DNA of 64,000 nt from Amoebophrya sp. A120. Lineage: Eukaryota; Protista; Dinoflagellata. The position numbers and the translations under genes are program-made. Positions within the stretch are counted from its first letter, which is position 1. Every line of letters begins with the position of its first letter. The notes below the pieces were generated by a model. It worked only from the letters and a program-made list of their open reading frames with translations, had not been told where the DNA came from and did no database searches. The stretch is from assembly GCA_905178155.1 (NCBI GenBank), contig CAJINV010000001.1, positions 931,981 through 995,980 of the forward strand, given 5' to 3'. Shown one piece after another: positions 1 through 62,450 of this stretch.

Positions 1-2535
1 AGTCGCTGGGGGAGTACAAGGTGTGCACGCCGTGGCACTCCGTGGGCTCGTCGAAGGGCTTGGCCTGCGAAGAGAGCTTGAACAGGTGTAACAGCTGCTC
101 GTTCACGCGGAAGCTGGGCCGGAACTGCTGGTAGCGCTGCAGCGAATCCAGGCAGAGCACCACGGGCAGCTTGTCGCACTTCTGCAGCGCCAGCTCGAGC
201 AGCAGCTCGGACGTGGGGCTGGACTTGGTGGAGTCGGTCCGGTCCACCACCACCCAGATGTTGCTCATGTAGGCCGCCTGCAGCACCGCCGTGAGCACGT
301 TCACCAACCGGCTGAACAGCACCTCGTCCACCTCTTGCGCCACCTGTAATGCGTGCTCCTTCTCCTCCTCCAGCGCCTCGCAGCTCGCGGTGTATCAAAT
401 GTAAAACATGTCTGGGTCTGGAAGAAAATGCAAGTTTGTCATGTTTGTCTGGCATGACTCTCAAATCAGTGATGCATGAGCAGCAAAAGGGCCTCTCGCC
501 TGTCATGCAAAAGCGCAGCTTGTCATGCGAAAAACGAAACACACAACCGCACAAAAAACTTGTCATGCTGGGCTGCACATTGCAGTGCGCCCACCATTCG
601 CAAATTAGCATCACAAGTTTCCAGACCCATACATATTTGCAATGCATACTGTCCGCTCCAGCGCCATGTAGTCCTGCGGGCCGCCCCGCTTCCGCATCAC
701 CCCGCCCTTCTTGTTCAGTTGAAAGGAAGCCTGCTCCACGATCGATTTGAAAGCCGGCTCCTGCAGCAGCTCCGACGTGGACAGCGCACACGGGTGCTTG
801 GTGCCTATGGGAGTGTCAGGATCGAAATCGACAAAATCGAAATAATCTGTAATGCATAAAATGCTATGCAGAAAGCGACTCTATTGCAGAGTATGCAAGG
901 AAGGCGGATTGTAGTCCTGGTACGGGTTAAGTTTTGGGCTGCTGACTAGCATGACAGAAGGCAGCTCTTTTGCCCTAAACCGCATGACAGATTCGCTTCC
1001 AGGCCGAGGAGAATTTGTCATGCGCCGACTACAGACTGTGGGTCTAACTGGCATCGATTTTGTGCATCACAAGTTTTTCGATTTTGACAATTTCGATTCT
1101 GACACTTCCATAGTGCCGAAGTCCAGCTTAATGTACATGCTCGGCTTCTGCAGGTTCCATTTCGTTTTCAGCGTTTCCGTGAACTGCGAAGTCGACACCT
1201 GGTGCTTCCGCGGCACGAACAGCGAGTTGGTGACCCGCTCCCCCCGCCCGATCCGCGCCTTCACGTAACCCAGCTTGGGCAGCGGCGCGTCCCCGCGGAT
1301 GTGCTTGAAACGGCCATGGAACGCGTTCTGGATGGTTTTTTGGTCCTTCTTCAAACCTTCCCAGGCGAAGTGCAGCAGCTGCGGGGTGATCTGCGGGATC
1401 TGGGGATCATTCACCGGGTCCTTCTCCAGCCGGTGGATCAGCTCCCACAGCGGCACCGGGTCCAACCCCTCGGATTCGAAGTGGGGCAGCCGATCGTGGG
1501 TCGCCAGGGTATCAAATGCAAAGCATGTTGTCTGGGTCTGGAAGATAATCGCAACATTTCGATCATGCATCTCGCGGACCACGCACCTGGTCTGGAATAC
1601 ACACAGAAGCATCACAGATTCATTTTGTGGGTGGACCTTCTCTAATCTCTATGCCTCTCACTCATGAAAAATACGCCTTTCGCTTGGCACAAATAAGTGG
1701 GTATCTTTTGCAAGTCATACAACAAAGATTGATCCTGGTGTTTTCGAGAGTTTGCATGACAAGCTCCATCCTTCCAGACCCAGACATATAATTTGCACAA
1801 TGCATACAGGGCATCGTAGGCATATACACACTCCTGCAGGTTCTCTAGAAACCGCTCCCAGTCCGCGTCCTCCTCCTCCCCGGGCGTGTGGTAAAAGTCG
1901 TGCATCACCAGCCCGGGCACCAGGTCCAGAAACGGGGTTTTGTTGGAATTACCCAGGGTATCCGTCGGTGACGGGTCGGCGCCGCCGCCCCCGACGGCGG
2001 TGGTGGTAGAAGCTGCATTCGGAAGTAGATTACTGGCACCACCACCTCCAACCGCGCCCGGCACGTTTACCACCACGTGCTGCGTAGCTCCTCCTGCGCG
2101 CTTGTGAAGATCGGGCACGACTGACCGCGACTTTTCGCAGAGGGACTGCACGCTGTCGCGGCGGGATATCATCGCGGGAACGGAGTGCTCCAGAGTGCAA
2201 TCCGTTGAGAAGGAGGTGCTTTTTCGCAGCGGGTTGCCGCCGGGCAAATCGTCCACGCCAATGGCGGGCGCCGGCCCGGTTGAGATCCGCGGGCCCGAGG
2301 TAGTTGTAGTTGTGCCAACCACCGGTGGCAGCGAGAGTGGCGCCGCGAGACTCGCAGAGAGTGAACTCGCGAGAGTGGCGTCGCGAGAGGGCGCCGAGAG
2401 TGAATTATCCTCGCCATCCTCGCAGGACGGGCTCGCCGACGTCCCAACGTCAGCTACCCAGCGCTGTGCTTCCTCCAGATCCGTACTCGCGCTGTTGCTC
2501 CCTGAACCGTCCAGACTGATGTCCCACTTCTTCAT
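1..2535 (-). CDS. Spliced gene (runs off left edge), TRPM-like N-terminal SLOG-domain protein
   Basis: Removing three elements (+5 nt each) gives a continuous frame: ...YDALATHDRLP...LKTKWNLQKPSMYIKLDFGTKHP...LTAVLQAAYMSNIWVVVDRT..., resembling TRPM 'W.L..P.L.ISV.GG' and 'A....AWI' motifs; strongly GC3-biased codons. Confidence 0.55.
393..648. mobile_element. Introner, family A (TIR tatc/gcattgcaaa.atgtctgggtctggaa)
   Basis: tatcaaatgtaaaacatgtctgggtctgg ... ccagacccatacatatttgcaatgcata; degenerate 5-nt DR cggtg/ctgtc; removal restores frame. Confidence 0.88.
806..1112. mobile_element. Introner, distinct TIR family
   Basis: TIR tatgggagtgtcaggatcgaaat / atttcgattctgacacttccata; perfect DR gtgcc; could splice as GC-AG. 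Confidence 0.9.
1510..1806. mobile_element. Introner, family A
   Basis: Family A TIRs; perfect DR caggg; frame YDAL|ATHD restored. Confidence 0.92.
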
Positions 2536-3487: not shown

Positions 3488-6400
3488 TCAATTCTCCGCA
3501 TCTACGGCAGCTGCCGCAGGGTTGGCTACGCTAGTAGATGCAGCACAAGTGTGACCAGCGTCTGGCTTCTTGGTCGTCCCACCCTCGCTTCCGCTCTTTT
3601 CCTCGTCCTCGCAGTCGGCTTTCGCAGCAAAAATGCGCCAGGAACCGTCGACCTGCAAACACGATAGATTTATTTTCATCTCTTAATTTTTACAATAGCA
3701 CTGCCTCTACAACTTGCCTTACTTCCGAGTCTGTTACAACTTACGTCAGGTACTATTGACAACTCGATCGGTTCTGGTATTATTGCATCTAAGAACTACG
3801 TCCGGAATTCGCTATAATTCTTATCCAACAAATCACTGTAGTTTCTATCTGAAGATATCGTATTTAAGTGGAGATATGAAAATGTACCTGCTGTTTCTGT
3901 TGCACTTGAATGTCAGCGGGGAACTGCTTCACGAGCTTCCACAGCGGTACCCGACCGATCGCTTTCCAAGCCGCTTTGATTCCCGGTTCCCGCGTATCAA
4001 GTGTAAAAATGTCTGGGTCTGGAAGAGTCATGCTGTTTCTGCATGACACAGAAGGCCTGGCATGGAAGCTCTAGCATCACAGGTTTCGAGAAGCTTCCGC
4101 AATGCCGAATCCGCATGACAAATCCCTCATGTTGGTCACAGAAAGTGAGCAGCTTTTGCTGCCTATGCATCAGAGATTCTTGTGTGTTCTGAAATGCGCA
4201 TCACAAGTTACTGTTACATCCTTCCAGACCCAGACATTTTTGCATTTGATACCGCGCAGCCTCTTCTCCTATCAAAATGAAGATTGACCCTGCAGCCCCA
4301 GAAGTGTAGGTATAAACAAGAAGAGTATATTTCTTTGCATTCGCAAAAGACCTTCATCTGGTGCAATTCTCACGTGTAAAAGCGCAGGTGATACAACTCC
4401 TGCTGCTCTCGTATGTTTGTATAACACCAACGCATCAAATTTGCGATGCATAACAGCGAAAGTAGTACTTAAAGCTATGTAGCGCACAACACATACAGTA
4501 TGGAGGGACACACTTGTCATACTCATGTTCGAGGCGAGGCACACTCCACTTTGATATCCACCGTACAGGATTTCTGCTCGCGGGACAGGACGAAGCGCTG
4601 CGTCTCCATGGCAAGGCGCTGCATCCCTGGATTCGTCGTGCCACCGGTCGAGTAACCTCCTGTCCGGAGGGCACGACCGGACGTCTCATTCACGATCGCT
4701 TCTTGATCATGACTATCACGACTAGCGCTTTTAACATTCTGCTCCGCCAGATTATGCGGTGAAACCACAGCCAGCTTCGTTGCGTATTCCGCGACGTCAC
4801 CTTGCGGTACGAGCAGCGTTGGTGTGAAAACCGGCCTATCCGCCAGCTCCTCGTTTCCGCCCGGAAACCCGTTCTCGGATGTCCTCCGCGTATCATGTGG
4901 GAAAAAACCTGCAGCTGCACTTGGAAAACAAGATCAGAAGACCAACAGCCCATAGTAGAGAAATCCAGCACATATCTGTCACAGCGGATCCTACATATCA
5001 ATTCAAGGAGGACATGCGAACGAAACCAAAATCTTGTTCATGTTCTGTACATCTCCCAAGATACACTGCGCTAGCTTTTTTCCAAAAGATACCGCAAACC
5101 TGAGACAGAAAGAACCTCAGTGCATCTAGAGGTCGTGTTTCCACCCGGCCCGGAGCTGTTCTTCTGCGGAGTCGCGTACTGGAGTTTGTCTTTGTTCGTA
5201 GAAGATGCCATTATTTGTTCGGTGGCCAATGTTGCGGATGTCGCACTATTCTTCGCGGCCCCGAAGTTGTTGTTGTACTGGTGCTGTTGCCACGACAAAC
5301 CCCGATTCATCCTCCCACCGGTATTGTAGTTGTTCCAGGATGAACTACTACCAGGTTTGCCGCCACCGTAGTTGTTGTAATACGAAGATGTTGGAGGTGA
5401 AAACGCGCCACCGCGATTCCCATTCCGATGCAGCGCTCCGTGGTAATTAACATCATCCGGCTTTGCATTTGTTAAAGATGTTGACCAAGTTGCATTATTA
5501 GTCGACGCTTGATATAGTTCTTCCCAGAGACGGCCCTGCATTGACGCAGTGGTCGCGGTGGACGCCGTCGGAGGTGCCGGCGCAACTTGGTTGTTGACGA
5601 TCGCGAGGATCTCCAATGCGCGCCGTAGTGTACCAGGATCCGACAACAGGTCAGCGGGCACGTCCGTGGTGTGGTGTGCAGGGTCGGAAGCTAGGTCGGC
5701 GGGGGACGCGAGCTCTCTTTGGTACCTACCGTGTATCAAAGTGGGCGCAGGAGGTTTGGAGATTTCTTCAGACTAATCCTACAATCGTGTCAGAAATTCG
5801 AAGTATGGCATCCTACATACTCTTGCGTCACTCGTCGATTTTATTTCGAGTCCTTTGTACAAACTTTTGCGAAACTCACATACCTATACCTCTAAATCCA
5901 AAACCAAAGATTGATAGAACTTTCTATACCATGCTGGAGATTTTGCAGCACTAATTGCCGGACGCTCAGATTTCGTATCTCGGCGCTCCCAGCAGTCTTG
6001 TGCCGCTTTCTGAGATGCCCCGGGCCGCAACCACGCCTGATCATCTCGCTCGCGGCCTAGTCGTGCGACAGTAGTTCCATTCGTGTACAAGTTTACTATT
6101 TCTTCTTGCACACTTGGAGGCGAGAAGAACTGCGGCGGCGTTGTATTCCCCTGTAGTGCGTCGCTCGTTTCGAATGCATTTGACGAAGCGGGCACAACTT
6201 TCTCGTCACCCTTCAGTAAAACAGCGTCGCTTCGTGCAGAAACCGTTGCAGCGCTACGCGGATCCGTTGCGAGTCGGTACGCGATTTTCATCACGCCGGA
6301 GGATGTAGTGGTCCGCTTGCTGGGTGTAGCGTTTATGGCGCGCGCAGGCTCGGTTTCGTGAGGAGAACGATCGTTTTGATCGGCCATCTTTGCACTACTG

Positions 6401-16200: not shown

Positions 16201-16331
16201 ATTAAGGTACATCTCTAGGACAAAGATACCAGCTGCAATGGAGGGCACATGCTTACATCCATCTCGTTCTACCCTATTCGGATTTGCAGACGTTGGTGAT
16301 GGAGGGTCTGTATGCATCCGCCGCTCCGCAC

Positions 16332-17607: not shown

Positions 17608-17814
17608 TATCCTGAGAAAAAACGTCCCTGCCCCAGAGTTCTTGCCATACCAATCTACATGCTTAAAGTGTCTCTCATGAGAAGCAAATCCCCATGAAAA
17701 GCAATTTCTCGGCGTATCTTGAAATTTGTGATGGTGCTCGAATCGAGATCTAATTGATTTGTTTAGCAGATTTCGCATCTTGACTCTGGGATGGGGACGT
17801 TTTTGCTCATGATA
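17608..17814. mobile_element. Introner, family B (TIR tatcctgag.aaaaacgtcccc..cccagagt)
   Basis: TIR pair present; DR ttcga/tacga; host gene frame not resolved. Confidence 0.85.
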
Positions 17815-19871
17815 TACGACACTATTACGGTACGCCCGCGTGCTCGCAGGTAGGCTAGCGCTGCAACCTCCGCCAAGCGTCAAGGGCAAAGGCGAGCACA
17901 GTCAAAAAAGAAAAAATGAATTGCACAACAAACCTCTCGCAGCACTCATGCTCCTTTATTTCGTAGAATGATCTACACTACTACAGCGACGACATATTCA
18001 CATTTTCGGCAATTCTCACAATTGCGACAGCGATTTTGCAGTCGAGTGCTTGTCAGGATCACAAAGAACAACAAACGGCTCTCACTCTCTTTTGGCTCGT
18101 CGGGTGTCACTGACTGGTCGTGGAACTGCACGGAGACGCAATCCAAAGCAAATAAAATACTTAGACTTACGTGATAAAGTGTTGAAAACAGAAAGGGTGG
18201 CCCGAGACGGGGCCAATACTTATTCAACGTGAAAAACTTACTCAAATTGGCTCAATGTTCAGATTTTTCACGACCCTTGTTCACTCACAAACTACCGCGG
18301 CATGCACCTGACGACGGGAACGGGCTCGCTTTTCACATTGATCGCTATCACAGCATCTTGTTCGCTGTCTCTTTGTTGGAAGAAAGAATCACTGATGCAA
18401 TCGCTATGAACATCAACATTCATACACGGTGTATGGACCTTTATTGAATCAGTAGCTTTATGCGACATTGAGATAGGGCGCACAAACCGTGGGGGGGCAG
18501 TGCAAGACACAGAGTTCCACATTTTTGCTTCAGGCTCACTTCCACAAAACCGCCGGTCCAGCATGCATCACATGAAAGCATTTCCAGAGATTGACTCAGG
18601 AGAGAAAGCAAACTCTTTTCGAAGCGCATCAACATCATTTTCATCACGCCCAAAAATCCGCCTCGTACGAGAATCGGTGGGTAAAGGCGCGAAGGCGGAT
18701 GTCAAGTTTTGGAAAGACCGACGGCCGTCCCGCCCAGCCCAGGCAGCAACTAGAACTACTTAAACGTCCCGGGAAAAAACGAAACGATCGCCGTCTCTGG
18801 TTTCCGGTCGTACAGTCGGGAGATCAGTTTGGCGGAGTTGTTCTTTGCTCGACTCAAAGAGATGCCCGCTCCGTTGCAGCATCGACGACGCGCCGCCAGC
18901 ACCACGACCGCGAAAGTAGTTGATACCAGGCCGTGCACCGTGATTTTTTTCTACCGCCGAGGCGGATAAGGATCTTTCACCCGCCCCAAAGAACAACATC
19001 TCGTCAGCCACTGGAGATTTCGTGGCGTCGTGTACGTCCGCGTCGCGTCCCGCCAGTCGTACGGACCGCTGCAGTCGCGGGGACAGGGAGCGGTCTGGCT
19101 GGTGGTCGTCCGAGAACGAGCCCATCGGATCGCTGGCCACACCAATGCTCGGACTCGTCCCGCTAGTTCGGCTTTTACCGGCGTGGGGTCGCTGTGCCAG
19201 GAGATCCGCGCCTCGGTCGAGTCCACTGTCCCCCCGGTCGGAGTCCATTTTTTCGGGGTGGTCCGATACCCAACCACCGGCGCTATCATATTGGAAACCG
19301 CCCTCAGCCCATAAAAAAAAATGTGGGGGGGGTAAATGCAAAAGCTCCAAGTCATGTTGGAACCAGTTGCTACCTTGCATGCATCAGGGTGGCAAACTTT
19401 CAAGCCAGAGTAGCGATGAAAGTCTGTACTTCAATATCAAGAATGCGCCGCGACATTATATATAAGTGACGTCTGTCTACTTCAAGTTGAACTTGCATTT
19501 TTGGCTTTTTAGATGCTGAATCCAAATAAGTACGTCGGTTTGGCTTTCTTGTTCGTTTCCTCACGCAAAAGTCTCCACGAGAGAAGTTTGCAACACAAAC
19601 TGGTATAGTCTTTTAGTGGTGGGGCACTTTTCATTTTGGTAGTCGCTATGCTGGATTTCGAACGAGGAGCCGTCTGTTTCCGCGGGAAAGGCTATGAGAG
19701 TCAACAACTCCCCCTGCCCCTCGCCCTCATGGCAACCACAGCAATACAACAAGCTCCGGGAAATGCAAAAATAAAAATCGTATGCAGCTTTCGCACGACA
19801 AAGCACCGCCCGATTCCAGCGCTGGTTCGGTTTCCAGTACTTGATGACACGCAAGCAGTGCCAAGAGACAA

Positions 19872-22464
19872 TCAACGGGTGGACGTGAGCTTCTTGGTAC
19901 TATATTGATGCATGGCAAACGAGGCGAAGGATGAGTTGGTGTTGTGCAGTCTCATAAAGGCTGGCGACTCCGACCGGTGCTCGTTTTCGGTGAGGACTTG
20001 CCGCGGACTTCCGCTCACCTCGGACGCAGCGTTGGACACTGCGAAGTCCGAACCGCTGGCGTTCATCTCCGCCGCTTCGTGCGCTTCTGCCGCAAACGAA
20101 CCAGCATCGGACGCGCGTGCGCTATCCTCCTGGAAGTTCTTGGAACTGTCGCTGCCTTCGTCGAGAGCGTAGTCCATTCGGGCAGAGCCAGAGCCACGGA
20201 GCCCTCGTCCCACCGCCTTTTGTTCGTCTTCGCCGTAGTCAAACTCTTGGTTTTCATAGTGTTCGTAGTCGTGGTCTTCCTCTTCGTCCTGGTCGTAGTC
20301 GTAATTTTCATCATTTTCGGCTTGTTCTTCGTCATCATAGCCACGATCGTCCTCTTCGTGGTACATCTCCCCGCCCGGTTGCTCCATTTGCTCTCCTTCT
20401 TCTCCACGTCCTCGACGCAAGTTCACTCCAGGCGCTTGCGAAGGAGAAAACGCCTGGTAATTATCCGCCGCTGCTGGTGATGTGGCTGCGTACGCAGGAG
20501 ATGACTGCGGGGGCCCACTCAAGAAGGTGACTTGTTCGGTAGCAGCACGGAGTGGCGACGCCTGCGTTCGCTGTTCTGCGCTGGCCACACCAGCAGCGGC
20601 CGCGGCTGCCGACCGTGGAGCCACTGGGACCGGTGAAGCAGCTGCGCTACCGGAGGCGGCAGGAGGACCGGCGGACGGAACAACAAGCGGTGGTCCTTGT
20701 TGTACCTCGTCCTCGTAATAGTCGTCGCTATCGCCTTCCTCCTCGTCGTACTATATCCTGCGGCAAAACATCCCCACCATAGATAGAGTTGTGTCACGCA
20801 GGTTTGCAATGACAGGAACATTTGCGACGCGCATCCCTGTGGTAGGGATTTTTCAATTTTGATGTTTTGGGATTTGTAATGCTGTAATAAATTAGAATAA
20901 GCAGATGGATTTGTAATGCGGCTGTAGTATTTGCCAACCTGCAATACACTACGGACTGCAACTTGTCATGCGTGACTCCAAAAAACTTCTCTGTTTGTCT
21001 TGCAAAGTCCCCCTCTTGACTCTGGGAAGATGGGGAGGATTTTGCTCAGGATATCGTAGTACTCCTCTTCCTCGTCGTAGTACTCTTCCTCCTCGTCATA
21101 CTCCCCGGCCTCTTCCCCGGCATAATCTAGCACATCTGCGCCCTCGCCCAGACCGGCCTTCATTCCACCCACGGTCGCCAACTTCGCAGCATTGGCGGAA
21201 GTGGAGGAGCCTGCAGGTGCAGCAGCGACGCCCTCAGCGTCCGTACTCGGTGGTACTGCCACAGCTACTTGTTCTGGTCCGCCTGTACTTGCGTTCGCGT
21301 CTGGACTTGAGCTCCGCATGTCAACGGCAACGTGTTGCTTTTTTTCCCGGCCCCTGCCGTTCGCCTCTCTTAGCGATACATCCTGGAGGTCGACCACCAT
21401 GGGGATATTTCCGACGTCCTCAGTTCTTGTAGTGGTCGAAGCGAGGGGCACTAGGGACCGCCGCTCCTTGCGCGCGCCGCCCTGCAGATAGAAGCCGGGT
21501 TTGTGCTTGCGGGCGTGGATCCGTTGCGCCCGTCGCCGGCGCCTTTTGACGCGTTGCGCGTCCGCAACGGCTCGCTGGGCGTGCGCGGCGGCCACGTGCG
21601 CGTGGTGCAGCTGCTGCCGCCTCGAATAGCGTGCCGCCGGCCCCTATTGTGGGGAAAAATACCTCCTCCCCATATCGAAAACGAAGTTTGTGTTCTTGCT
21701 GTATTTGAGTACAACACAAATCTCTTTGTATTGCTAGAAGGCCAAGAGACGCAGTTCCTCCCTCGTTTGTAGGCAATTTGTCATGCTGTTTCCCGTTTCC
21801 TGTTGCTTTCTGTCATGCTAAAGACGCTAGGCTTTCCTACAACTCCAGCTAGCACTAGCACTACAATACGCATCTCTTCCCTTCTAGCATGACAAAATGG
21901 CTTGTGGTCGCAAATCATGCTACGCAAATCGCCCTTTGAGTATGGGGAGGGGGGATTTTTCATTTTGATAGCCCCAGCTTTAGGGCCCCGCTACTAGTAC
22001 CGCGGGAACTTGTTGTCGTCGGACGAGGCTGTAGTTCTAGCACCGAGGTCGTGATCTTTTTCGCAGGAGCACCTGCTCCGGTGTGCCGGTGCGTGGTCTC
22101 TCGCTGGTCGCGCAGAGCGGCGGCGAGAAGACCCTGGTCGACGGCGGCGAGCGTGTGCTGCTCCTGATCACCACCCAGCCGGTACAAGGCGAGGGACAGC
22201 ACCGCAACGACTTATGCAATACAAATTTCCCCTGCACGTAGACCAGACGTACACGTACATCACTAAAATGCAGCATGGCAATAAATTTCATCAATTTAGA
22301 GTGCAACACTGGTCGTGCTAAAAAGGATTGCAGGTTAGTGCTGTCATGCAGGAACAACATTTGTTTTTGTTGTACGGCCCGTACAGAAAATTTACTGTGG
22401 ATACGAGTGTCGTGAAAACGCCAATGCCAACCCAGGCACAAATTTCGGCGGTCGAACCGTCCAT
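19872..22464 (-). CDS. Hypothetical low-complexity acidic protein with N-terminal transmembrane segment (may extend further both ways)
   Basis: Three elements removed (+5 nt) give MDGSTAEICAWVGIGVFTTLVAVLSLALYRL...KLGPAARYSRR...EEYYDDEEEG...VAPRSAAA in one frame. Confidence 0.65.
20754..21053. mobile_element. Introner, family B
   Basis: tatcctgcggcaaaacatcccc ... ggggaggattttgctcaggata; DR tacta/tcgta; frame restored. Confidence 0.85.
21645..21970. mobile_element. Introner, family C (TIR tat....gaaaaatcccccctccccata)
   Basis: TIR pair; perfect DR gcccc; frame restored. Confidence 0.92.
22213..22403. mobile_element. Introner, diverged family
   Basis: tatgcaatacaaatttcccctgcacg ... cgtacagaaaatttactgtggata; DR cgact/cgagt; frame restored. 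Confidence 0.8.
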
Positions 22465-22614: not shown

Positions 22615-22837
22615 GCATTTGGAGGCGTTTGGATGTCTAAAAAATTTGTGTTGCATGAGCAGCAAAAGACTTCTGACTTTTGCTACGCGGAGAGGGCATT
22701 CGTCATGCGGAATAGGCATCAAGAATCCCTCAAAAAACCTGTGACGCTAGGGCATGCATCACAGACATCATGGCTCATGCAAACCGTGCATGACAAGTCT
22801 CAGAATCTTCCAGACCCAGACACTTTTGCATTTGATA
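22615..22837. mobile_element. Truncated family A introner (left TIR lost)
   Basis: Intact right end cttccagacccagacacttttgcatttgata and family A body; left end absent. Confidence 0.75.
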
Positions 22838-23320
22838 CTGACCTTTCTCCGGTAACAGCGGCGCTCGATCCAACACCACGAATCCGTGCTCGTGAAAGAA
22901 GCTCTTTTCGGCCTCGGTAAGCAGCAGAGGGCTTGCAACCATGATAGCGGGCGCTTTTTTATTGTAGACAAATTGAAAGAATGACAATGATTGTCGCTGG
23001 GTATCGTGGTTTTATCTTCTTTTTGTCGTGGTCTTCAAAGGAAAGTGAAAGAACATGTTGCGGAAAATATCAAGTTGTTGTACTATCAACGCCGGTTGAT
23101 AGAAACCAGAGTCAATGTTTTCATCTGCACGCGTTTATCTTCATGCTCAGCTCTACTCTACTCTACGCACGGAGTGGCTAGGTAGCACAATTCCTTGCTT
23201 CATCCTCTCTCTCTCTCTCTCTCTCTTCATTTTTCATCGTGTCGTACGTTCTACTTTCCTGTGTCAGGGAATTTTCGTGTCCATTCTTTTTGTTTTTTGC
23301 CTCGAACAATCGGGTGTTTG
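22838..23320 (-). pseudogene. Partial duplicate of the PhyH gene 5' end and upstream region
   Basis: Near-identical to ~27380-27832; encodes MVASPLLLTEAEKSFFHEHGFVVLDRAPLLPEKGQ versus MVVSSLHLTEAEKSFFHEHGFVVLDRAPLLPEKAQ. Confidence 0.85.
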
Positions 23321-28236: not shown

Positions 28237-28471
28237 TATGGCGTTCTCAAATGTTACATTCTCAACTGTTACATGAATTTGTAATGCAAGAACGGCGAAA
28301 GTGAAAGGGACAAGATTGCGCCTTTTGCATTACAGATTTGGCACAGATTTGCATGCTGTCTAGCCCTTCGGATATTTGTCATGCGAAACAGCTTAATCGT
28401 GGCGATCTTGGTGGTGAATTTGCATGACAAATCATGTAACAGTTGAGAATGTAACAGTTGAGAACGCCATA
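28237..28471. mobile_element. Family D element in non-coding DNA (3' UTR/intergenic)
   Basis: ~40-bp TIR tatggcgttctcaa.tgttacattctcaactgttacatga; perfect DR ttcag; lies beyond the stop at 28706. Confidence 0.92.
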
Positions 28472-41351: not shown

Positions 41352-41760
41352 CACGTTTGCTGTCAACATCTCGACCTCTCTCGCGGGCTTTTCGTTCACC
41401 AGACTGGCAAGATACAATTTACAACTAGTGTGGTTTGATGTAGCAGGGAAGAAGTTTGACTGAGAGGACTGCTCGACGAACGATATCAAAAGCTGTCAAT
41501 ATTTCCGACATCTCTGGCGACGCGACATGTGTGTGAGTGTCGGTGGCTACTGCATACAAGGTAAATAAACTTGCTGAAGTACTAATCTTTCGAAACGCAA
41601 TGAACAAAAATCCAAATCGACCCTCACTTACAGGGAGGTTTGTGTCCCATGTGAGGACATCAAGTGAGCCACTATGCCGACGTCTCTCGTGTTCTCGCGT
41701 GAGTTGAAATTATGCGACACGTTTTAATTGACATCAAACCGTGACGACACCAAGGTGTCT

Positions 41761-47970: not shown

Positions 47971-50900
47971 TCAAATGACACCATAGTGACTACAGTGTCT
48001 GAATTCCTCCTGATAATAGGCCAGCTGGAGCAGCAGACTGCGCTCCATCTTGTGAATGATAACTGGCGGGCCTTCGTAGGCTGCGCAGCGGTCGACCCGG
48101 GCCTCCAGGCCGTGGTCTGGGATTTCCACTGGCCACTCCAAGCACATCCCGTACTCCGGGTCATTCACGAGAGGCCGCAAGCTGGCCGTGCGACACCACC
48201 CGGAAGGCTGGTGGGCATGGGGGAACGGCTGCAGAGGAGGGTCGACGTGAGGGAGTTTTTCTTGGTCAGCTTTTGGATTTTCAGCGTTCTGCTCAAACAA
48301 CGAGGTTGTTCGGAACAGAGCGCCCATCCATGTAGTATTTGCGTCTACTTGCCCTGCATCCTCTGCACCCCTTACTTCCTCGCCCTTACCTACAACTCCG
48401 TTTCGAATTTGCTGTAGCAAAACATACTTCTGTTCCTCTACTGCCAAGTCTTGCGTCACCCTCTGGAAGGGTTCGTAAAATTTTGAGACCGCGAGTTGGT
48501 GCGCACCACGTGGGGACGGGTGTATTACGCTGTCGTCTACTTCTATTGCATTCTCCCCCTGCTCTAGTGCTATCGACGCAGTTTCGTCTGCTCCATCTTC
48601 CACTGGCTTCTTCGCATTCCACCCTTGGTGTTTCTCGTCGATGGCGTACAGCTGCTCGCCCTTGATCGCTCGACCCTTCGAGCGAAACTGCACTTCCAGG
48701 TAATAATTCCACTGGCAACGGTATCGCCAGAAAGAAAAATTGTTTCACCGTAAACTTGCAATGCAGAAAATGCATCTCACACGTGTTTATCTTGCTACAC
48801 ACGCAAGACAATGGATTTTTACTTTTAGCTGCGTTTTCACTTAGGAGCACTGCATGCCAAATTTTCTCGTCTGTCATGTAGAACTACAAACTTGTGATGC
48901 AAAACCTGCAAAAGAAAATTGTTCATACTTTTACAGTGAAACACTTTATTTTTCGTGGGATAAGCGGTCGAGCACAAACGGCTCCAGAACGCGAAGGGCG
49001 TCACTGCGGAAAAAGACGTACAGCAGCCCGGCGCCGATCCCGTTCTCGTCGTAAAACCCGTTCAGGCCATTATGGAGATATCCTGAGTAAAAATGTCCCC
49101 ACACCAGAGTTAAGATGGGAAATCTGCTAGACAAGTCAGCCAGCTTTGGTTGTTTCGCATGACAAATTTGTCCTTGTAGTGTAATCCTGTTGAGCTAGTT
49201 CCGAAGCATCACAGATCTAGCATGTCATGCTGATCCTAGCATCAGAAATTCCAAAACACTACTAGAAAATAGCTTTCATGCGGCTCCGCATGAGAGACTT
49301 TTTTGGCGTGCAGATTTGCATGACAACTCTGGGGTGGGGACGTTTTTACTCAGGATAGGAGGTCCGTTTTCGGCACGGACCTGTTGTCGGGCAGGAAATT
49401 CCGGTTTTCGTTGATTTGCGTTTCCGTCACGGGCAGATATTCCAACAAAAGGAGAATCCGCGTATCAAATGTAAAAATGTCTGGGTCTCGAAGATTAGAA
49501 CTTGTCATGCTAAATCTGAATGATGCAAAAATCTGTGTTGCGTGAGTACCAAAATCTGTCCGCTTTTGACCAAGTTGAGAGGGAGTTTCTCATGGAGGAA
49601 AGGCATGATAGAGACCTCAAAGAGCCTGCCATGCTGGGTCTCGCATTCCAGATCTCATGGGTCATGGAAAATCTGCATCACAAATCTCGTATTCTTCCAG
49701 ACCCAGACATTTTTACATTTGATACCGCGCAAAGGGCGACAACTCTTCCGCCGCTTGCGTGGTTACTCGAGCGACCAGCCGGTTAGATTTCTGGAGGGGA
49801 ATCTTATGATCGCTAGGGTCTTGTTTTTCTGAGTCCTCTTCTTCAGGGGACTGCTTTATTTCTTTTTTTTTGTCCTCTTCAAACACCAAATAGCGGCTTT
49901 CGATGAACTTTCTTCTATTTTGAAAACGACGAGTTGATGATGGTAGAACCGCTGTACTTGTGTGGTCCAGCCCGGTCGTTGTACCACTTCTAGCCCTGGC
50001 AGATTCAATCTCGTCGGACTGCTGGCTCAATTGTTCTTCTAACGTGGCAGAGAAACCAGCGATTTCTCTTTTAGGAGGCGTTCTGATCTTCGTGAAAATC
50101 AGAAAGCCCTCGTGAACGAAATGGTAGTCCCCGTTCGTGAAGAAGACGCTATCGAATTTCGGATGTTCTTGTGTCTGTTCTTCCGCTCCTTCCATCGACA
50201 GTGTCTTGGCCTCGCCCTGATCGCAGAATTTAGAAGTCGAAGTACAACTAGAACTACTGCTATCAAAAAACAGTCCATTTCTCGCCCTCTTCCTTCCGTC
50301 GGTCACGTACGCGAGCAGGTGCAAGACGCGAAACGGGTTGAAGACCACCATGTCGAGTTTATCCTGAGGACAAACGAACTCCCCCAGCACTCCAGAGTCA
50401 GGGTGGGGATTTCGCAACACAAGTCTAAAAGTTTTGGGCGCCGCGCATCACAAGTTGCTGCAGTCCGTAGTGTAAGTAGAAGTGCAGGTCATAAATAAGA
50501 AGGACAGCCGCATCTCAAATCCATTGTTTCATCCTATAATTTCCAGCACTACAAATTCCAAAACACGACTAGGAATGCCACTCATGGGAATCCGCATTAC
50601 AAATGGAAATGCTCATGTTCAGTTCCTGTCGCTGTCACTGCCAATCTGCATGACAACTGTGAGGAGCAGGTGCAGGTGAGGTCGTTTTTGCAAATGATAA
50701 AGCTCCAGACAGAAGAACGCGTCGTACCGGCCGACCTCCGCCAGCTCCAGCAGCGCAAACCTTGTCATCGCCGCCAGCCCGTATCGCCACTTGTCCGCGA
50801 CTTTGCTGCTCCAGTGGGACTTGTGCATGTGCTGTAGCAGTTTCCGCTTCAAAGGGTAATTCACCACGTGGACCCCGAGGGAGCGCAACTTCTGGTACTG

Positions 50901-53900
50901 GCGGATGGTCAGCGGGTACTTCGGAGACAGGCACAGATTCCTGACCTTCGGAGACTGTGGGGTCTTTCCGCAGTCTATGGCCGCGTGGAGCAAATTCGAT
51001 GGACTGACATCTTGTTGGAGTGCGGGTTTCTGCTGAACTGTACTTCCATCGGCGTGTGCCGCGGGGAGAGTGGTACTGGTCGTGTCTACTGCATCTTTTA
51101 CTCTTCCCGAAGAAGCTTTGATGTTGCTTGGGTCCTTCGCTTGCCCCTTTTGCTCGATGTGGCTTACCGCTTCTCTATACAGTTCGGCGAGTTGCTGGGT
51201 GAGGTCCGGCGCATCTTCGTCGCTCTCTGTGACGCGGTTCTGCACCCAGTGACGCTGCATGGGGGCGTAGAAGTCTTCTTCGTAACTGTATTATGTTGTT
51301 TTTTTTTTATATGTATCAACTGTAATCTAAAAAGACCGAAAATGTGTTTTTAGAAAAACGTCGGATGCAATTGCAAAGTACCATGATCAACACACGATTG
51401 GGATTTGAGATGAAAGGTCCACCTACGAGGAAATAAACAAGATGAAGACAATAGAGGTTTCTGAAAAAGTTTTGTTTAAGCACCTTGATGTGGTTGAGAT
51501 ACCGTCCTGGGTCTGGTACTTTTTCGGGGTGAACATAGTCCGGATCGGTCAGAAGCTCCGCAATTTTCACTGGGTCGGTTTCCTCGTCCTCTTCTGGAAG
51601 TACGTTTGTCGCAAAGAGCCGGGCGAGCGAACCAAAGTGACGGTCGGCTGCGGTAGTTTCGTGCTCTTTTCTCTCCGAAGAAGTGGTCGACCACGTAGCA
51701 ATTTCTTTAGGCGTTCCACATTGCGCGTCTACTTTAACAGTCTCGACATCTTCATGTTCTTGCGTATGAACATCTTTTCCTTCCTCCATTTCGACGTTCT
51801 TTTGCTGTGTCGTTTTCAGCTGCGCCAAAACTTCTTCCTCTTCCCGTGTCACGCCATCCGTTTTCGAGAAAATCGCATCCAGCTCGAATTCTTGCCGGCT
51901 CGGGCTGGTAACGAGCAGGAAAAAATCCACCCCGTACTCGCGCAAATATCGCAGGCCCGCCTGTTGCCAGAAGGCGAGCAGCCCGCCGTCCTTCTTGCCA
52001 AACTGCAGGGCGAGTGCGGCTTTGGACGCGGATCCCATGTCGATCGAGGCTTTGAACAGGTCGCTCATCAGGTGTGCGTTGATTCCGATCGCGAACCGCT
52101 TGCGCTTTTGCTGAGGGGTATGGGGTTCATTCTTCAACTTCATCATACCTTCTGGTTCTGGTGGCGCATCAAAGTTTTCCCGCGGTGCTTCCCTTGTTGC
52201 GTCGGATCCATCTGTGGCAGTTGCGACAAAAGGATCACTTTGCTTTCCCGCCGTGGTGTCGTTCCTTGCCTTCGCCGCGTCCGCGGAATTTCTAGAGGCT
52301 TCGTCTGGCAGCTTAATATTCCTGTGAAACAGGTTCACGTTCCTCAGGGTGCTCTTCACGGTCCAATCATCCTCGTAACATGCCTCGAACGCACCGTCAG
52401 CTCCACGACAACGCGGCGCCGCGATCCACTCCGAGGTGTTCAGCTGACGTAAAGCTTTCTGGTTGAAGGCAGACTCGGCAAGGATGGTTTCGAGTCGATT
52501 CTGCTGCACCACGACCTCCCGGGTCTCATCATCTGCACCAGGTTCGGAACCGGACGGTCTATCTTTTTCTTTTCCACTGTTGTAGCCCGCATCATATTTT
52601 GTAGCTCTTGTTCTACTTCCAGTTGTCCCTCCTTTTGCCCGATGCAGCAGCAGGAGATACTCTTCCAGCAACACCGGCCAGGTACCGGGAATGGTCCGCG
52701 AGACGCTGTCCCGTACCAAATCCGGACTCTCTGCCATCTCTTGCTCCACAGCGTTTAAGAACGCGTCTGTAAGGGATAAACCGCTGGAGGAGGAGTTCGT
52801 GTTGAAAATGAAAGCAGACTGAAGGTCCTTCCCTCTATCCTGCACTACCGTCAGGTTCCCGAACAACTGTTCCTGTAGCCAACGCCGGTCCGTGCCGTGC
52901 GTCGCAAGAAAGGTCTGCACAACCCGCTCCTGCTCGTTCACACTTTCCCTCTGCGGAAAAATCGCGGGCACGTGCATGCAATACCCGAAGTGGTCGCGGG
53001 CGAGAAACTGCTCCAGCGGACGAATGTCTGCATCAAGGTTAGAAGGAGCCGCGATCGTTCTTCCAAACGCCTCGGGGCGCTGCTGCAGCTGTTCGTACGG
53101 CCTTATACTAGCAGTAGACGCGAGTTGTTCCTTTCGAACGACTTCGTCGTGATGGCCTTGGAGGGAACTCTGCACCACCACCGGATGCACTTCTTCCACT
53201 GGAATCTCGGTTATCGGAAACAGATCTGCTGGCTGTGGGAATGTGGTATTCAGAGTGGCATGAACCTTTTGTGTGCGATGATCTCGCTCTTCCTCTTCCT
53301 CTACTGCCTTGTTCTCTAGATCGGCGCTTATTTTCCCTTCCGATCCATCATTTCCACGACCTTCAAGGGGGGGAGACTGAGACTTCTCGTCGCTGTCGCC
53401 GTCCTCCGCATGCGATTTTCCATAGAAGTACAAGCCCGAAGACCGCGCAGCCGCCGGCTCGACGAAGAGTTCGCGATACAGTTGGTACTCGAGGGCAAAT
53501 ATCGAAAGGAAAAATCCCCCCTCCCCATATTGAAAAGGTATGATGCCGAAAATTTGTGTTGCTGATTTGAGGTCACAAATCGTCTCCGTGTTGCATGAAG
53601 GCAACTCCACAGGCTCCGCCGCATTCTCCAGGCGGTTTGTCATGCTGTTTTAGCTACAGCGTAGACGCCTGTCATGCTAAGTGCCTAGGCCAAAACCTGT
53701 CTAATCAGGCTCAGTATGGGCCTGCAGTCCTCGCCAGCAAGACAAATCTGATTTGTGTACGCAAATCCAGCATCAGAAACTTCGTTTTGATATGGGGAGG
53801 GGGGATTTTTCATTCTGATAGCAAACGGGGCGACCTCGCGTGCGACCACCTCGCGCTCGCACGACAGGGGGACGCAGAAGAAAAAGTGAAATGTAGAGGG

Positions 53901-57527: not shown

Positions 57528-59373
57528 ACAAGCGAAGAACATGTTCCAAAAAGAAAAGTGGGCGCCCGGCGCGTCCTTTTCGACGCGATCCTGCTGTTCC
57601 GTTATCCACCCAAACGTAGCCCTTTGGCAAAAGGCGGAGGAGAAGTCGAGTGGCCTACCCCGTGTCTGGCCTCCAACTCAACCTTCCCCCGCACGACGCA
57701 TCGCCGTCGGCCCGGAGAACCCAGAGAACCGCTGCTGAATCCGGGCGACAGGAGGAGGTGGAGGCCCACTACCGGGTGGGGCCGCCACACCTTCGCCACC
57801 GCCAAACGACCGGCTATGCAGAGACGCGCAGACGGACGTGGGCACCCCAAAAGGGGGCCCACCAAGAAGGGGAAAACGAACAAAGTTGCCATTTTTGTAC
57901 ACGGACTCTTGTCTCCCTCAGACTCAAAGCGCGAAACTCTCCTGGACTCACTCAGACCGACAACTGCAGCGCTCATGAACCAACGATGAGAACAAAGGCA
58001 CTCTCTGAAATCCAAGCACAAAAGCACTCCTGCCTGGAGCACATGCGAAGGTAGATATCACTCAGTTCGGAGAAATCTATAGCAGGGTGCGGATCAGGAC
58101 CGAATATGGTCCCCGCGAAACACACCAGAAATATAACTAACTACGCCGGTGATAGTAAAGCGTCAAAATCTAAGCCTTCGAGAAAATGCGATAAATCCTC
58201 ATCCACCATGGTAGCAGCCGTGATGTCCTCCTGCAATATACGGGCCCCTTCATCGGATGACACGAGACGAACAAACTCCTTCCGCTGGCGATAAAAGAGA
58301 TCCCACATGTCGTCTCTCGTCGGAATGTCGGCCGTATTGTCGCCCGAAGCAATCCATTCCGAAACCGGAGAGCACCCGGAAACCGCAACACGGCTCCAGA
58401 AGAGGCTGGAACTCAAAGAAATCGCGGTCGACCCGCCCGAGGCATTCCGCAATGCCGCCACCGCTGTCGAGTTGTCGATGCGAAAGACCACCCGGTGGTG
58501 GGAAAAGAAGGATCTGAAGTGCCAGAGCGCAAGGGCAGGCGCCAACGTCTCCAGCACATTTATCGGGAAAGACGCCCACGAAGCGCCACCAAGCATGTCC
58601 CGGGAAACCGGGTAGCGAAAGATGTAGAAAAGGTCGCCCACCGGAAGCACGCCTGCTACCCAGCCCTTGCCCCTCCGCCAGCTAGCGTCTGTGTACACGA
58701 TGACCGAAGGGAGGTCAACAGCCCGAAAAAGTACCGGTGGAAGATGAGCAAGGCACTCCCGCATGAACCCGAGGGAGAAAACAGCCGTCTTGGACAGCTC
58801 CAAAGCACATGATCGGTGGGGGTGCGACGCCCGACGGAAAAGAGACTTCAACAACCCATTGACCCGCCGCCCAATAGTTAATGTGAGCGGAAACAGAAAA
58901 CGCCCGACCAGGCTGGAAGCGTCTGCCGGCGAAAGGGTTCCAGCCTTCAACACCGTAGCCAAATACTCCCGAAGCCGTTCCGCCTTCTCCGGACTGAGCT
59001 GCATGGAGGGCTGGCCCCGCAGGTCGAAGCTCAGCCCAAGCACCGGGACCTCATAGGCCCCACACTTAATTTTCTTCATTTTCCAGGGGAATCCAAAGGA
59101 TTCCAGGAGGAAAATCACCGCCCGAATAAGCAACACCCTGGTCGCCCGGAAAGTTGTGCCACTGTGGTCATCGAAGTAGACTGTGTGAGGGGCGTAGAAG
59201 AGCCACCGCACGCAGAAAGCTACAAACTGGGCAACCTGAAGCCATTCCGTCACGCTGTGAACGTTTCCGAACAGCATAGTTTTGGAGCAAAACCCAAAAT
59301 ACTTCTTCTCCACCGGATCAAAGACAAGCGAGGAACATGTTCCAAAAAGAAAAGTGGGCGCCCGGCGCGTCCT
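57528..59373 (-). mobile_element. 5'-truncated retroelement (DIRS-type RT-RNase H) between 50-bp direct repeats
   Basis: acaagcga(a/g)gaacatgttccaaaaagaaaagtgggcgcccggcgcgtcct at 57528-57577 and 59324-59373; RT-RH ORF inside. Confidence 0.8.
58141..59323 (-). pseudogene. Reverse transcriptase (N-terminally truncated) + RNase H, DIRS/tyrosine-recombinase-retrotransposon type
   Basis: MLFG...SV, YFDD, 'GFPWKMKK', 'VLGL' (RT); YTDAS, INVLE, RIDNSTA, WIASGDNTADIPTR (DIRS-type RNase H); first catalytic Asp motif of RT missing. Confidence 0.85.
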
Positions 59374-59910
59374 ATTAATTTCCTTTCCAATCTTCAGCCA
59401 GGTGAAAAGCATAGAAAAGTTGCAATTCAAGTTTAAGTGAGCCCGGAGAGGCTTGGGGTGTGAAGACTCTGCGCCATTTACGATTCGGCGTGCAGCGCGG
59501 ATGAGTTGTGACTACTCGCGGATAGAACTAGAGATAGATGGGGTTGAATCTTTTCTTCAAGAATGGCTGTCCACATGTCAAACTTCTACTGAAACTATCG
59601 CACATCATACACTTTACCTCGGAAGGGAGATGAGGTTCTTACCTGCAGCAACTGCAGTTTATTTTTCGAATGAGCTTCTTGATCGTGCTACAAGATGAAT
59701 AAAACACGGGACTCCGGTGGTCTCTGAAAGGACGACGCCAGAGCCCCAAGAATTCGAAACGAATTTTTTACATGTTCGTTGCACAGCAGCACATTTTAAT
59801 GTATGACAAGCTCACGGCATTTTTTTTTGCGAAAGCACCTCGTCAATTTTGGTACGAAATTACGACAGCAAACAACAACAACAGAATCCCGACGCGCCCA
59901 CAAGAAGTAG

Positions 59911-62450
59911 TCACCGGAAGGGCACGCTGGCCTTCCACTGTCGCCCCATCAAATTTTTGTATTTTTCTTGCTCCGACTTCGCTGCTGACGTGCCAAAGGA
60001 AGCCATGACGAGTTTGTGCTTTTTCTGCTCCGCGTCTGGGTTGATAGCCGCGAGCGAAGCGAGATTGCGGACGTTTTCTTTGTTTTCATCTTCTGCGATA
60101 ATTGTTTTCATATTCCCAGCTTGACTAGTAGTACTTCCCGTAGTTTTATTTTTTCGCACGTCTTCTTCAGATAATGTTGGCACTACTTGATGTGCAATTG
60201 GCGAAACGGACGGTGGGCGCGTTGGCGTTGCGATTTTGTTTGCCGAAACGGCAGAACTGGACCTGCCCGCGGCGCCCTTTCCGTTGGCCGCGGTCGTGCC
60301 CGTTGCCTTGTTGGTCTCGGTAGAAGGTGATGGTGTAGTTGTTGTCGACGGCGTTCCTTTGTTCGTACTGGACTTACTTTCCCCCAAAGACGATGATGCC
60401 TCGCTTCCGGAGGCGGAGGTGCTGCGTAGTTCCGCCGAAAGTAGAACTCCACCGACTACAGTGCTGGCGGCCTTCGTTTTATTGCTGTTTGAAGATTTGC
60501 CATTTTTCTCCGCACCGTCGAAAATGGTTTGCATGTTCTGACTGTCGTTCTTCTTCCCGCCCGCATTCGCGGACGAGGGCAGTCCCAACGCCTGCGCCAC
60601 GAACAAACTCCTGGTTCCGGCCGCCGTTTTGCTGTTCTCCGCCGCTGCTTCCACCCGCTCCGCCGCCGAAACCTCGGCCCGGTGGTTCGGGGACACGCTC
60701 CGCTTGTCCGTTTCCGCGATCTTCCGGTACGGGTTGCGGTCCACCGTGACCAGGGACGCCTTCAAAGCGAAGTTCCCCGACGGGATGGGAAACGAGTAGG
60801 AGGGATCGTAAAAGACGTACACGCCGTTTGTCTGCTTGGTGCAGGTGGTGCTGGTCAGCGCGGCGTGGTGCCCGGGAAGCCGCGTCACACTCGTCTGAAT
60901 GTCGTAGAAGTCGTCCGAGTGAACCCCGAGTAATTCCTTCGTGTCCGGGTTCTGCGGGTATTTCGACGGAGACATGGAATCCAGGTTCACCCACCAAGGG
61001 TTCGCCTTGGTCCTGTCCTGTTTCTCCGCGACAGCCTGGAGCTCCCGCAGACACGTTTGCACAAAGTTGTTTTTCTGGTCCGTCAGTTCCTTCCGCTTTC
61101 CCGGGTTGGCGGCAATGATCTCCTTCGCTTTTTTTTTCGCCTCCTTCGCGTATCCAATGCAAAAACGGCCCCGCCGCCCCATACTAGTCGCGTTCCGGAA
61201 TTTGTCACGCTCCAATCAGCGCGATGCGCTAGGTCTGCGATGCTGCTGGACTAGCTGAAAAGGACTACACCACGAGGCCAAACTTGTCATGCGCAACAAC
61301 CAAGGCTTGATGTTAATTTGTATAGCAAATTTTCCATCTTGACGATGGGGAGGTGGGGACGTTTTTACACAGGATAACGCGAGCTCGAGGTTCTTCGGGC
61401 CGGCCGCCTGGACGAACGCGATGTAGTGCCCATTCGCGAGGAGGATCACCCAGTTATGAATTGCAAAAGTGTCTGGATCTGGAAAAGTTGCGAGATTTGT
61501 CATGCTAGTCGCGCAGGACTCTGAGCTCCGTATTGCGTGGGCGCAAAGAGCTTCTCTTGTCTGTCATGCAAAACCAAAGTGAAAGTTTCTCATGCGGAGT
61601 ACGCAACTCAGAACCAAGAAAGACAATGAACTTGTCATGCTTGGCAGTGCATTACAGTTTGCGCATTGTTCCCTGACTGGCATCACAAGTTTCCAGACCA
61701 AGACACATTTACATTTGATACCAGTCGAGGAGATGCAATTTGATGTCCTTACTTGCCAGCGCCTTTTCCACCGTCTCCCCGTAGTGGCACTCCGCCTCGG
61801 GGTATCCAGGAAAAAAACACCATCACAGTCACACTTAGGAGGTTTTGCATCAGAAATTTGTCTCGCATGACAAATTTTTCTTGTATTGCAAAAACACAAA
61901 GGGAAATCGCCTAGAGCTCTTGACTGTGATGCATTTTTGCGCATGACAAAAATTTTTGTATTGCAAAAATGTGCAAAAGTGATTGTGATGGTGTTTTTTT
62001 CTTGAATACGGGGAAAAAGTCCTGGAGCACCCGGTGGTAGTTGTCCAGGGGGAGCCGGGCCATCATCTGGCACGTGTCGCGATCGGTAATCAACGCATTC
62101 CACTCGCCCTTGGTATGCATTGCAAATATGTCTGGGTCTGAAGAGTGGAACTTGTAATGCCGTCTGCGGATTCTAAAAATATCTGTGCTGCACGAGCAGC
62201 GAGAGGAGTCAATTCTTGGCACGCGGAGAGGGCATTTCTCACGCGTCATTAGCATCAAGAAACTTTCAAAAAATCTGTGATGCTAGCACCAGGATCACAG
62301 ACCTCACGGGTCATGCAAAATGTGCAGAACCAGCCCCGACTCTTCCAGACCGAGACATTTTTGCATTTGATACTTGGTCGTGAAATGCAACACCGAATTC
62401 AACGCGTGCTTCCCGCATTGGGACCGATACTGAACCTCTTTGTAAAAATT
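59911..62450 (-). CDS. Hypothetical multi-exon protein (5' end approximate)
   Basis: Four elements removed give ...TKGEWNALITDRDT...QDFFPEAECHYG...LLDWVILLANGHYIAFV...ERDKFRN... continuing into the 434-aa ORF. Confidence 0.62.
61214..61376. mobile_element. Introner, family B (left end degenerate)
   Basis: Right end ggtggggacgtttttacacaggata intact; element+5 removal restores frame. Confidence 0.65.
61455..61720. mobile_element. Introner, family A
   Basis: Family A TIRs; perfect DR ccagt. Confidence 0.92.
61803..62008. mobile_element. Introner, family E
   Basis: tatccaggaaaaaaacaccatcacagtcac / gtgattgtgatggtgtttttttcttgaata; perfect DR cgggg. Confidence 0.92.
62114..62372. mobile_element. 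Introner, family A
   Basis: Family A TIRs; perfect DR cttgg. Confidence 0.92.

Follow-up and report, generated by a model that had tools for sequence, protein, structure and literature searches.

Introners of Amoebophrya sp. A120 were described by Farhat et al. (2021, PMC7789003) as non-canonical introns of ≈240 nucleotides (nt), falling into many families, carrying no internal transposase, and bounded by inverted repeats that begin with TAT, followed by seven variable bases and AAA; direct repeats of 3–5 nt accompany them (a 5-bp example is given in the legend of their Fig. S19), and both the repeats, in their length and position, and the splice sites are called variable. In the tables of Gozashti et al. 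(2025, PMC12130899; 56 of 58 A120 rows), family 38 is entered as integrase-like by homology, with a 5-bp target-site duplication (TSD) and TA/TA termini; a TSD of 5 is given for family 19 by manual inspection, and most families stand as 'Unknown' with automated TSD calls of 2–11 nt. Here, a 64,000-nt stretch of A120 contig CAJINV010000001.1 (positions 931,981–995,980; 'the window') is analysed, in which 38 such elements were found. These short, non-coding TAT...ATA transposon copies are removed from the RNA together with exactly five bases, and we consider it probable that the removed piece always runs from 1 nt before TAT to 4 nt after ATA and that an altered host spliceosome does this.

The window elements are the already described Amoebophrya introners, as an earlier note on this DNA had proposed: they share with those of Farhat et al. 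the host (by protein identity), the TAT..AAA ends, direct repeats, non-GT-AG removal (at eight joints) and the division into families, and with the A120 families of Gozashti et al. the character of DNA elements with terminal inverted repeats (TIR). The novelty that the note claimed was overstated, TAT start, A-run and 5-bp repeats having appeared in 2021 and the '5-bp TSD, TA/TA termini' of family 38 in 2025. In contrast to the account of Farhat et al., the repeat is uniformly 5 nt here and abuts TAT/ATA, and the joints fit a single '1+4' register; the 56 rows consulted state neither a common 5-nt duplication nor a splice register. Families were strain-specific between A25 and A120 in the account of 2021, whereas here they are common to a closer relative (87% protein identity).

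Among transposons, IS3EU/GingerRoot elements combine TA..TA ends with a 6-bp duplication at GC-rich, motif-free targets, and Ginger2/TDD elements TG..CA ends with a 4–5 bp duplication (PMC10045372, PMC6839031). The window elements share the GC-rich, motif-free target and, in scans that did not assume them, the TA..TA ends of the former; the likeness to IS3EU drawn in the earlier note thus holds for the ends and fails for the 6-bp duplication (0/36 in the window; 2/513 against 269 at 5 nt in a second assembly). With Ginger2/TDD the duplication length is shared, unlike the ends. Among introns, those of Giardia and Trichomonas (PMC6679479) offer a VTATGTT donor tolerating A, C or G at +1, and a fixed 3' distance from the branch point, with pairing that shortens long introns; they differ in keeping the terminal AG and a fused branch motif, in their small number and in not having arisen as copies of a transposon. 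Fritillaria and euglenid introns (PMC11282704) derive, as here, from MITEs (miniature transposable elements bearing inverted repeats) with TIR plus TSD and lack GT-AG ends; they differ in that Fritillaria favours AG-AC/AG-AT ends, and in that euglenid nonconventional introns pair positions +4..6 with -8..-6 and come out in circular form.

Excision of the elements and position of the cuts

An inverted-repeat scan made without assuming TAT ends or any repeat length gave 65 diagonals in the window versus 4–11 in five shuffles; perfect 5-nt flanking repeats at any symmetric offset numbered 20, of which 17 lay exactly at TAT..ATA (16) or TAT..GTA (1). A targeted TA[TC]..[AG]TA scan yielded 54 pairs, again 20 with a perfect 5-nt repeat, as compared to 5, 2 and 11 pairs with no perfect repeat in three shuffles. 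Thirty-five pairs were kept, 19 being removed by eye (internal sub-pairs, shifted duplicates, chance pairs) and all 20 perfect ones retained; element 38298-38627, added from an RNA joint, completes the scored set (n = 36), and 32331-32545 and 32651-32962, found by mapping the A120 protein P0001, bring the total to 38. The roughly 38 elements of the earlier note are therefore real, its count of 19 perfect repeats becoming 20. In the scored set the repeat matches at 5/5 positions in 20 elements, 4/5 in nine, 3/5 in six and 2/5 in one, and perfect flanking repeats of 4 or 6–9 nt occur in 0/36.

Element lengths range from 124 to 621 nt (n = 36). The donor-side end is TAT in 34/36, with A at element positions 11, 12 and 13 in 29, 29 and 32. 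Eight clusters common to the second assembly take up 27 of the 36 elements, nine being singletons; the X6 contig depth is far higher in element bins, indicating repeated families, and the main family occurs in both orientations within minus-strand genes. The elements at 17608 and 28237, outside known exons, have ends and repeat as in the others. In 29/36 elements, at least eight of the 25 outermost terminal pairs have a predicted probability >0.5 (median z -6.0).

Reading frames open best on removing element+2, +5 or +8 nt, and RNA settles on +5. The RNA data are contigs assembled from X1 and X3, two runs of a single sample classed as RNA by the tool's guess; since GT-AG introns are skipped in them and 40057-41499 has no coverage, they are spliced RNA. 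Ten contig joints are listed between 36690 and 51100: seven pass over an element, with a gap of element length+5 in every case, and three over a GT-AG intron; at 48722, the eighth element of this stretch, a contig comes to its end with the letter of the upstream repeat. A further joint, 20748/21054, skips 300+5 nt in both X1 and X3. Removal of element+5, the RNA test proposed in the earlier note, was thus found at 8/8 readable joints. In addition, eight further elements and a hybrid intron described below lie between contig pieces, where the mRNA lengths of 311, 1140 and 1578 nt agree exactly with the +5 model. In X6 contigs, the kind of which is not on record and which behave as DNA, elements 19284, 19693, 36833 and 38298 are unbroken and without differing letters.

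Where the two repeat copies differ, a joint reveals the position of the cut. With offset 0 denoting removal of the whole downstream copy, 20754, 36833 and 37292 are compatible with {0,1}, 38298 and 49079 with {0-4}, 39077 with {1} and 50360 with {1,2,3}. At 61151, judged from the codons, offset 0 gives an in-frame stop and offsets 1–5 lysine. Offset 1 is the only value common to all informative joints; the intron accordingly starts on the final base of the upstream copy, runs through the element and stops after base four of the downstream copy. The earlier note, which had element and one repeat removed, was right in net length and not in position. Under a null of uniform offsets (0–5), the products at 11 imperfect sites give p = 4e-4, or ≈2.5e-3 allowing for the post hoc choice of offset.

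In the 1+4 register, donors read N-T-A-T-(C/G), any base being admitted at +1 (G 12, C 10, A 9, T 5; n = 36), and acceptors a T-run, about seven bases, ATA and four free bases, with no AG at -1 to -4. GT-AG ends are accordingly absent: G stands at +1 in 12/36 only, and an AG acceptor in none. RNA-supported canonical donors in the window are GTA(A/C) in 5/5, such that +2T/+3A is common to both kinds of donor. That the readable cuts fit a single rule likely means that the splicing machinery picks introner ends by position and not by GT-AG letters. The U12-type donor consensus is RTATCCT; an assignment of the elements to U12-type introns was rejected on the basis of +1 purine in 21/36, +5 C in 21/36 and +6 C in 9/36, with minor small nuclear RNAs (snRNAs) undetected in A120.

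The features of the window are listed below (repeat, matching positions of the flanking 5-nt repeat).

393-648, minus: introner, main family, repeat 3/5; end/repeat scans, clustering; frame restored
806-1112, minus: introner, repeat 5/5; both end scans, frame test
1510-1806, minus: introner, main family, repeat 5/5; targeted scan, frame test, clustering
3995-4251, unstranded: element, main family, repeat 5/5, no host gene assigned; both end scans
4891-5091, unstranded: element, singleton, repeat 4/5; targeted scan, clustering
17608-17814, unstranded: element, repeat 4/5, no host gene found; targeted scan, clustering
19284-19641, minus: introner, GTA end, repeat 4/5; targeted scan, frame test; intact in X6 contig
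19693-19956, minus: introner, repeat 5/5; targeted scan; RNA contig piece ends at 19956
20754-21053, minus: introner, repeat 3/5, RNA joint 20748/21054 removes 305 nt (X1, X3); RNA contigs
21645-21970, minus: introner, repeat 5/5; both end scans; RNA pieces end at 21639
22633-22837, unstranded: main-family copy without left end (start approximate); repeat comparison, contig and protein mapping
25066-25329, minus: introner, main family, repeat 4/5; targeted scan; RNA pieces end at 25060
25388-25639, minus: introner, repeat 5/5; both end scans, frame test
25766-25959, minus: introner, repeat 5/5; both end scans, frame test
25997-26120, minus: introner, near-perfect 124-nt hairpin, repeat 5/5; targeted scan, folding
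26857-27103, minus: introner, main family, repeat 5/5; targeted scan; RNA pieces end at 26851
28237-28471, unstranded: element beyond CAP-G2 stop, repeat 5/5; both end scans, protein mapping
28709-39592, minus: host gene, condensin II CAP-G2-like (PF12422), 22 coding exons, 13 element introns and one hybrid; Pfam, P0001 mapping
28788-29068, minus: introner, repeat 5/5, 286 nt removed; P0001 mapping
30083-30335, minus: introner, main family, repeat 5/5, 258 nt removed; RNA contigs, P0001 mapping
30569-30812, minus: introner, repeat 4/5, 249 nt removed; RNA contigs, P0001 mapping
32331-32545, minus: introner, repeat 4/5, 220 nt removed; P0001 mapping
32651-32962, minus: introner, GTA end, repeat 3/5, 317 nt removed; P0001 mapping
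33088-33370, minus: hybrid intron, donor GTAAGG (canonical type), acceptor ATA + 4 nt without AG, relic inverted repeat; P0001 match permits this register or a 1-nt shift
33555-34175, minus: introner holding nested insertion, repeat 5/5, 626 nt removed; targeted scan, P0001 mapping
34496-34818, minus: introner, repeat 3/5, 328 nt removed; targeted scan, P0001 mapping
35069-35320, minus: introner, main family, repeat 5/5, 257 nt removed; targeted scan, P0001 mapping
35372-35693, minus: introner, repeat 5/5, 327 nt removed; targeted scan, P0001 mapping
36833-37075, minus: degenerate introner, repeat 2/5, RNA joint 36827/37076 removes 248 nt; RNA contigs
37292-37580, minus: introner, repeat 3/5, RNA joint 37286/37581 removes 294 nt; RNA contigs
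38298-38627, minus: degenerate introner, repeat 4/5, RNA joint 38292/38628 removes 335 nt; RNA contigs
39077-39333, minus: introner, repeat 3/5, unambiguous RNA joint 39072/39335, intron 39073-39334; RNA contigs
48722-48962, minus: introner, repeat 4/5, upstream copy's letter in RNA contig; RNA contigs
49079-49357, minus: introner, repeat 4/5, RNA joint removes 284 nt; RNA contigs
49463-49724, minus: introner, main family, repeat 5/5, RNA joint removes 267 nt; RNA contigs
50360-50699, minus: degenerate introner, repeat 3/5, RNA joint 50355/50701 removes 345 nt; RNA contigs
53500-53820, minus: introner, repeat 5/5; both end scans, frame test
61151-61376, minus: introner, repeat 4/5, stop codon if whole downstream repeat removed, lysine under 1+4; codon reading
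61455-61720, minus: introner, main family, repeat 5/5; both end scans
61803-62008, minus: introner, repeat 5/5; both end scans, frame test
62114-62372, minus: introner, main family, repeat 5/5; both end scans, frame test

The CAP-G2 host gene and a related genome

The CAP-G2-like gene at 28709-39592 corresponds to P0001, a protein that its source names as A120: exact 8-mers of the window cover 1611 of its 1612 residues. P0001 was not counted as independent splice evidence because it was possibly built on the same RNA. One feature of this gene is the hybrid intron 33088-33370, in which a canonical-type GTAAGG donor is joined to an ATA+4 acceptor. Another intron of the gene, 36350-36702 (353 nt), is readable as GT-AG, with donor GTG instead of GTA, and lies within a short repeat. 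Nested in introner 33555-34175 is a distinct inverted-repeat element, 33603-34079, with 68-nt arms, a G-start and TTA flanks; X6 contigs hold family copies without this insertion, and the introner thus enlarged (626-nt intron) is still removed exactly. The TTA duplication of the nested element presumably points to PIF/Harbinger.

The second assembly comprises 171 metagenome contig stretches matching the main-family end motif (160 loci, 648 kb including overlaps); the same motif gave 0 matches in viral contigs. Its host is an Amoebophrya relative, with a DNA ligase 87% identical to that of A120 and an SNF2 protein of 54–55% identity to two other Amoebophrya-like SNF2 proteins, one of them named A25. 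Here, 246 of 277 5-nt repeats in the assumption-free scan lie at TAT..ATA, and among targeted pairs (n = 513) the perfect repeat is 5-nt in 269, 4-nt in five, 6-nt in two and 8-nt in one, with no target-site motif in this assembly. The uniform 5-nt duplication across families that the earlier note had claimed is hence borne out in window and relative alike. All families share TAT-(C/G)-N6-AAA, with A at end positions 11–13 in 87–94% of 644 ends, and the orthologue alignment is gap-free at +5 at three of four informative junctions. The best match of the window elements in this assembly reaches 96.7% identity, namely 30083-30335 with L052:6646, while the ligases are 87% identical; this similarity hints, as far as the sequences go, at recent exchange or constraint. 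The stretch L018:1-16020 packs 23 elements into 16 kb, with exons down to ≈50 nt.

A possible mechanism and its alternatives

The mechanism that we put forward, tentatively and with some doubt, is that the Amoebophrya spliceosome needs neither a first G nor a last AG, reads U-A at +2/+3 and cuts four bases past AUA, and that a hitherto undescribed TA-ended, 5-bp-duplicating, integrase-like transposon lineage fits this ruler exactly with its ends, giving rise to tens of thousands of scarless introns in any sequence and in either orientation. Insertion would be carried out in trans by an integrase-like DDE transposase making a 5-bp staggered cut, as for MITEs; such an enzyme is suggested by the uniform ends and the sequence-free 5-nt duplication. 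On the donor side, the last base of the upstream duplication and the element's TA would form N-U-A, keeping +2U/+3A and waiving the +1 G. The acceptor side would consist of the U-run and the invariant AUA, the 3' cut being set by distance, 4 nt past AUA, such that AG is dispensable; the distance may be measured from a branch adenosine within AUA. Either orientation would splice, the two ends being copies of one inverted repeat, and the target would be restored whatever its sequence because 1+4 equals the duplication length; elements could therefore insert anywhere in coding DNA. For a loose donor with an invariant branch-to-3' distance there is the Giardia precedent (VTATGTT donors; PMC6679479). 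A fixed register names the donor (N-UA), predicts the position of the branch point and accounts for insertion without a target motif. It would also sharpen the question of how Amoebophrya removes tens of thousands of non-canonical introns, posed as open in the literature, and, if true, correct gene models at imperfect repeats, such as 61151 with its false stop under the other reading. The elements themselves are known; the fixed 1+4 splice rule is new, testable (the register can be checked genome-wide on existing reads) and based on one RNA sample. A literature search found it stated in no publication, although published figures and closed papers may hold it.

Several observations weigh against this picture. 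The RNA joints are without exception taken from assembled contigs of a single sample, and the tested host genes are all on one strand; from the raw RNA run X9, with the same species label, only 18 reads map, mostly on element ends. The register is pinned exactly at one joint only, with offset 0 excluded at three sites, and the invariance of +2T/+3A is in part due to the elements having been selected on TA. At junction L019:8809 (repeat 3/5), the remaining one of the four informative junctions, +8 fits the orthologues better than +5. U1 and the minor snRNAs are undetected in A120, U2, U4, U5, U6 and most spliceosomal proteins being present (PMC7789003); it is the undetected U1 that counts here. 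No transposase family was found by Pfam in 29 window open reading frames (ORFs), nor in a set of 110, of which 108 were drawn from the 230 locus ORFs with at least 200 amino acids; Farhat et al. report none in A120 either (PMC7789003). Published motifs would seem to help: the leading non-canonical ones begin with N-T in 9/9 (A120) and TT in 9/9 (A25) in Table S4 of Farhat et al., where A25 repeats begin with TTA (PMC7789003), and 892 of 1322 introns of A120 family 1 begin with N-T (PMC12130899). This excess was given little weight, since a mirror A-N excess at 3' ends (8/9 leading A120 motifs; 864 of 1322 in family 1) allows strand pooling or aligner preference; the N-T excess may be an aligner artefact, and the 1+4 rule predicts no A-N mirror unless strands were pooled.

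It may be argued that, with net removal at +5, the place of the cut in the duplication varies among introns, 1+4 being a small-sample coincidence. The 20/36 perfect repeats are uninformative for the register, and the legend of Fig. 3 in Farhat et al. has splice sites variable relative to the hairpin (PMC7789003), although such variability would be the expected output of an aligner inside perfect repeats. A codon-usage and GC comparison of the exonic repeat copy in the second assembly found about half of the repeat mismatches synonymous (40/78), as if both copies could be constrained, and does not discriminate which copy is exonic. Given that offset 1 is common to all informative sites (chance ≈2.5e-3 under the uniform model), sliding appears quite improbable. 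Alternatively, and as the main rival, a separate structure-guided nuclease plus ligase might cut 1 and 4 nt outside the terminal hairpin with no spliceosome involved, as in euglenid nonconventional introns, whose offset pairing and circular products are the precedent (PMC11282704). The terminal pairing in 29/36 elements, the acceptors without AG and the undetected U1 (PMC7789003) speak for it; on the other hand, 38298, 39077 and 50360 are spliced exactly with no terminal pairs predicted on the diagonal (pairs are scored without gaps, and shifted pairing may escape this score), the introner donor shares the canonical +2/+3, a hybrid intron exists, and A120 possesses most spliceosomal proteins with U2, U4, U5 and U6 (PMC7789003), which leaves such a nuclease unlikely. 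That the elements are excised from DNA by programmed elimination, or are assembly artefacts, could be entertained inasmuch as the RNA nature of X1 and X3 is the tool's guess; it is largely refuted and very improbable, the same contigs skipping GT-AG introns and leaving 40057-41499 uncovered, and X6 contigs traversing whole elements without letter differences.

As for the origin of the families, for which the earlier note proposed one DNA-transposase lineage, several unrelated transposases may have moved them, their likeness reflecting a survival filter for TA ends and a 5-nt duplication that are spliced cleanly; this is compatible with the splicing rule. The internal sequences form at least eight clusters plus singletons, no transposase was found in the scanned ORFs, and 1+4 splicing would itself filter for 5-nt (or 2-, 8-nt) duplications. 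We hold it to be unlikely, in view of the TAT-(C/G)-N6-AAA ends common to all families, the rarity of 8-nt duplications (1/513), which would be frame-neutral, and the elements 17608 and 28237, which have like ends and repeat outside known exons. The search for an autonomous copy extends the earlier note, which had seen no autonomous copy and proposed looking for long copies with a DDE transposase ORF: the Pfam scan of the 108 locus ORFs returned host genes only, an integrase motif occurs in none of the 230 locus ORFs, and no coding copy was found among long TAT..ATA pairs in the window and the 160 loci of the relative. The best long-copy candidate, L023:505-1608, was rejected, having no Pfam domain and resembling a nested insertion. 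Because no coding copy was found, the elements were assigned neither to IS3EU/GingerRoot nor to Ginger2.

Further features of the window

Every identified gene in window positions 1-62400 lies on the minus strand, like the unidirectional gene clusters reported for Amoebophrya. A segmental duplicate links 22838-22964 with 27380-27506 (95% over 127 nt, the similarity running on for several hundred bases); it begins exactly at the end of the left-truncated element (22837), and the segment perhaps duplicates part of the gene start located upstream of 27100. The minus-strand ORF 58144-59511 (456 amino acids) has no Pfam match, and by eye it resembles what remains of the reverse transcriptase/RNase H part of some DIRS-type retroelement; a repeat of ≈40 nt occurs at about 57536 and 59333. 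Towards the end of the window, 63380-64000 holds a CCTTAAGG-rich low-complexity tract followed by a 14-nt tandem array, which is possibly subtelomeric or satellite DNA.

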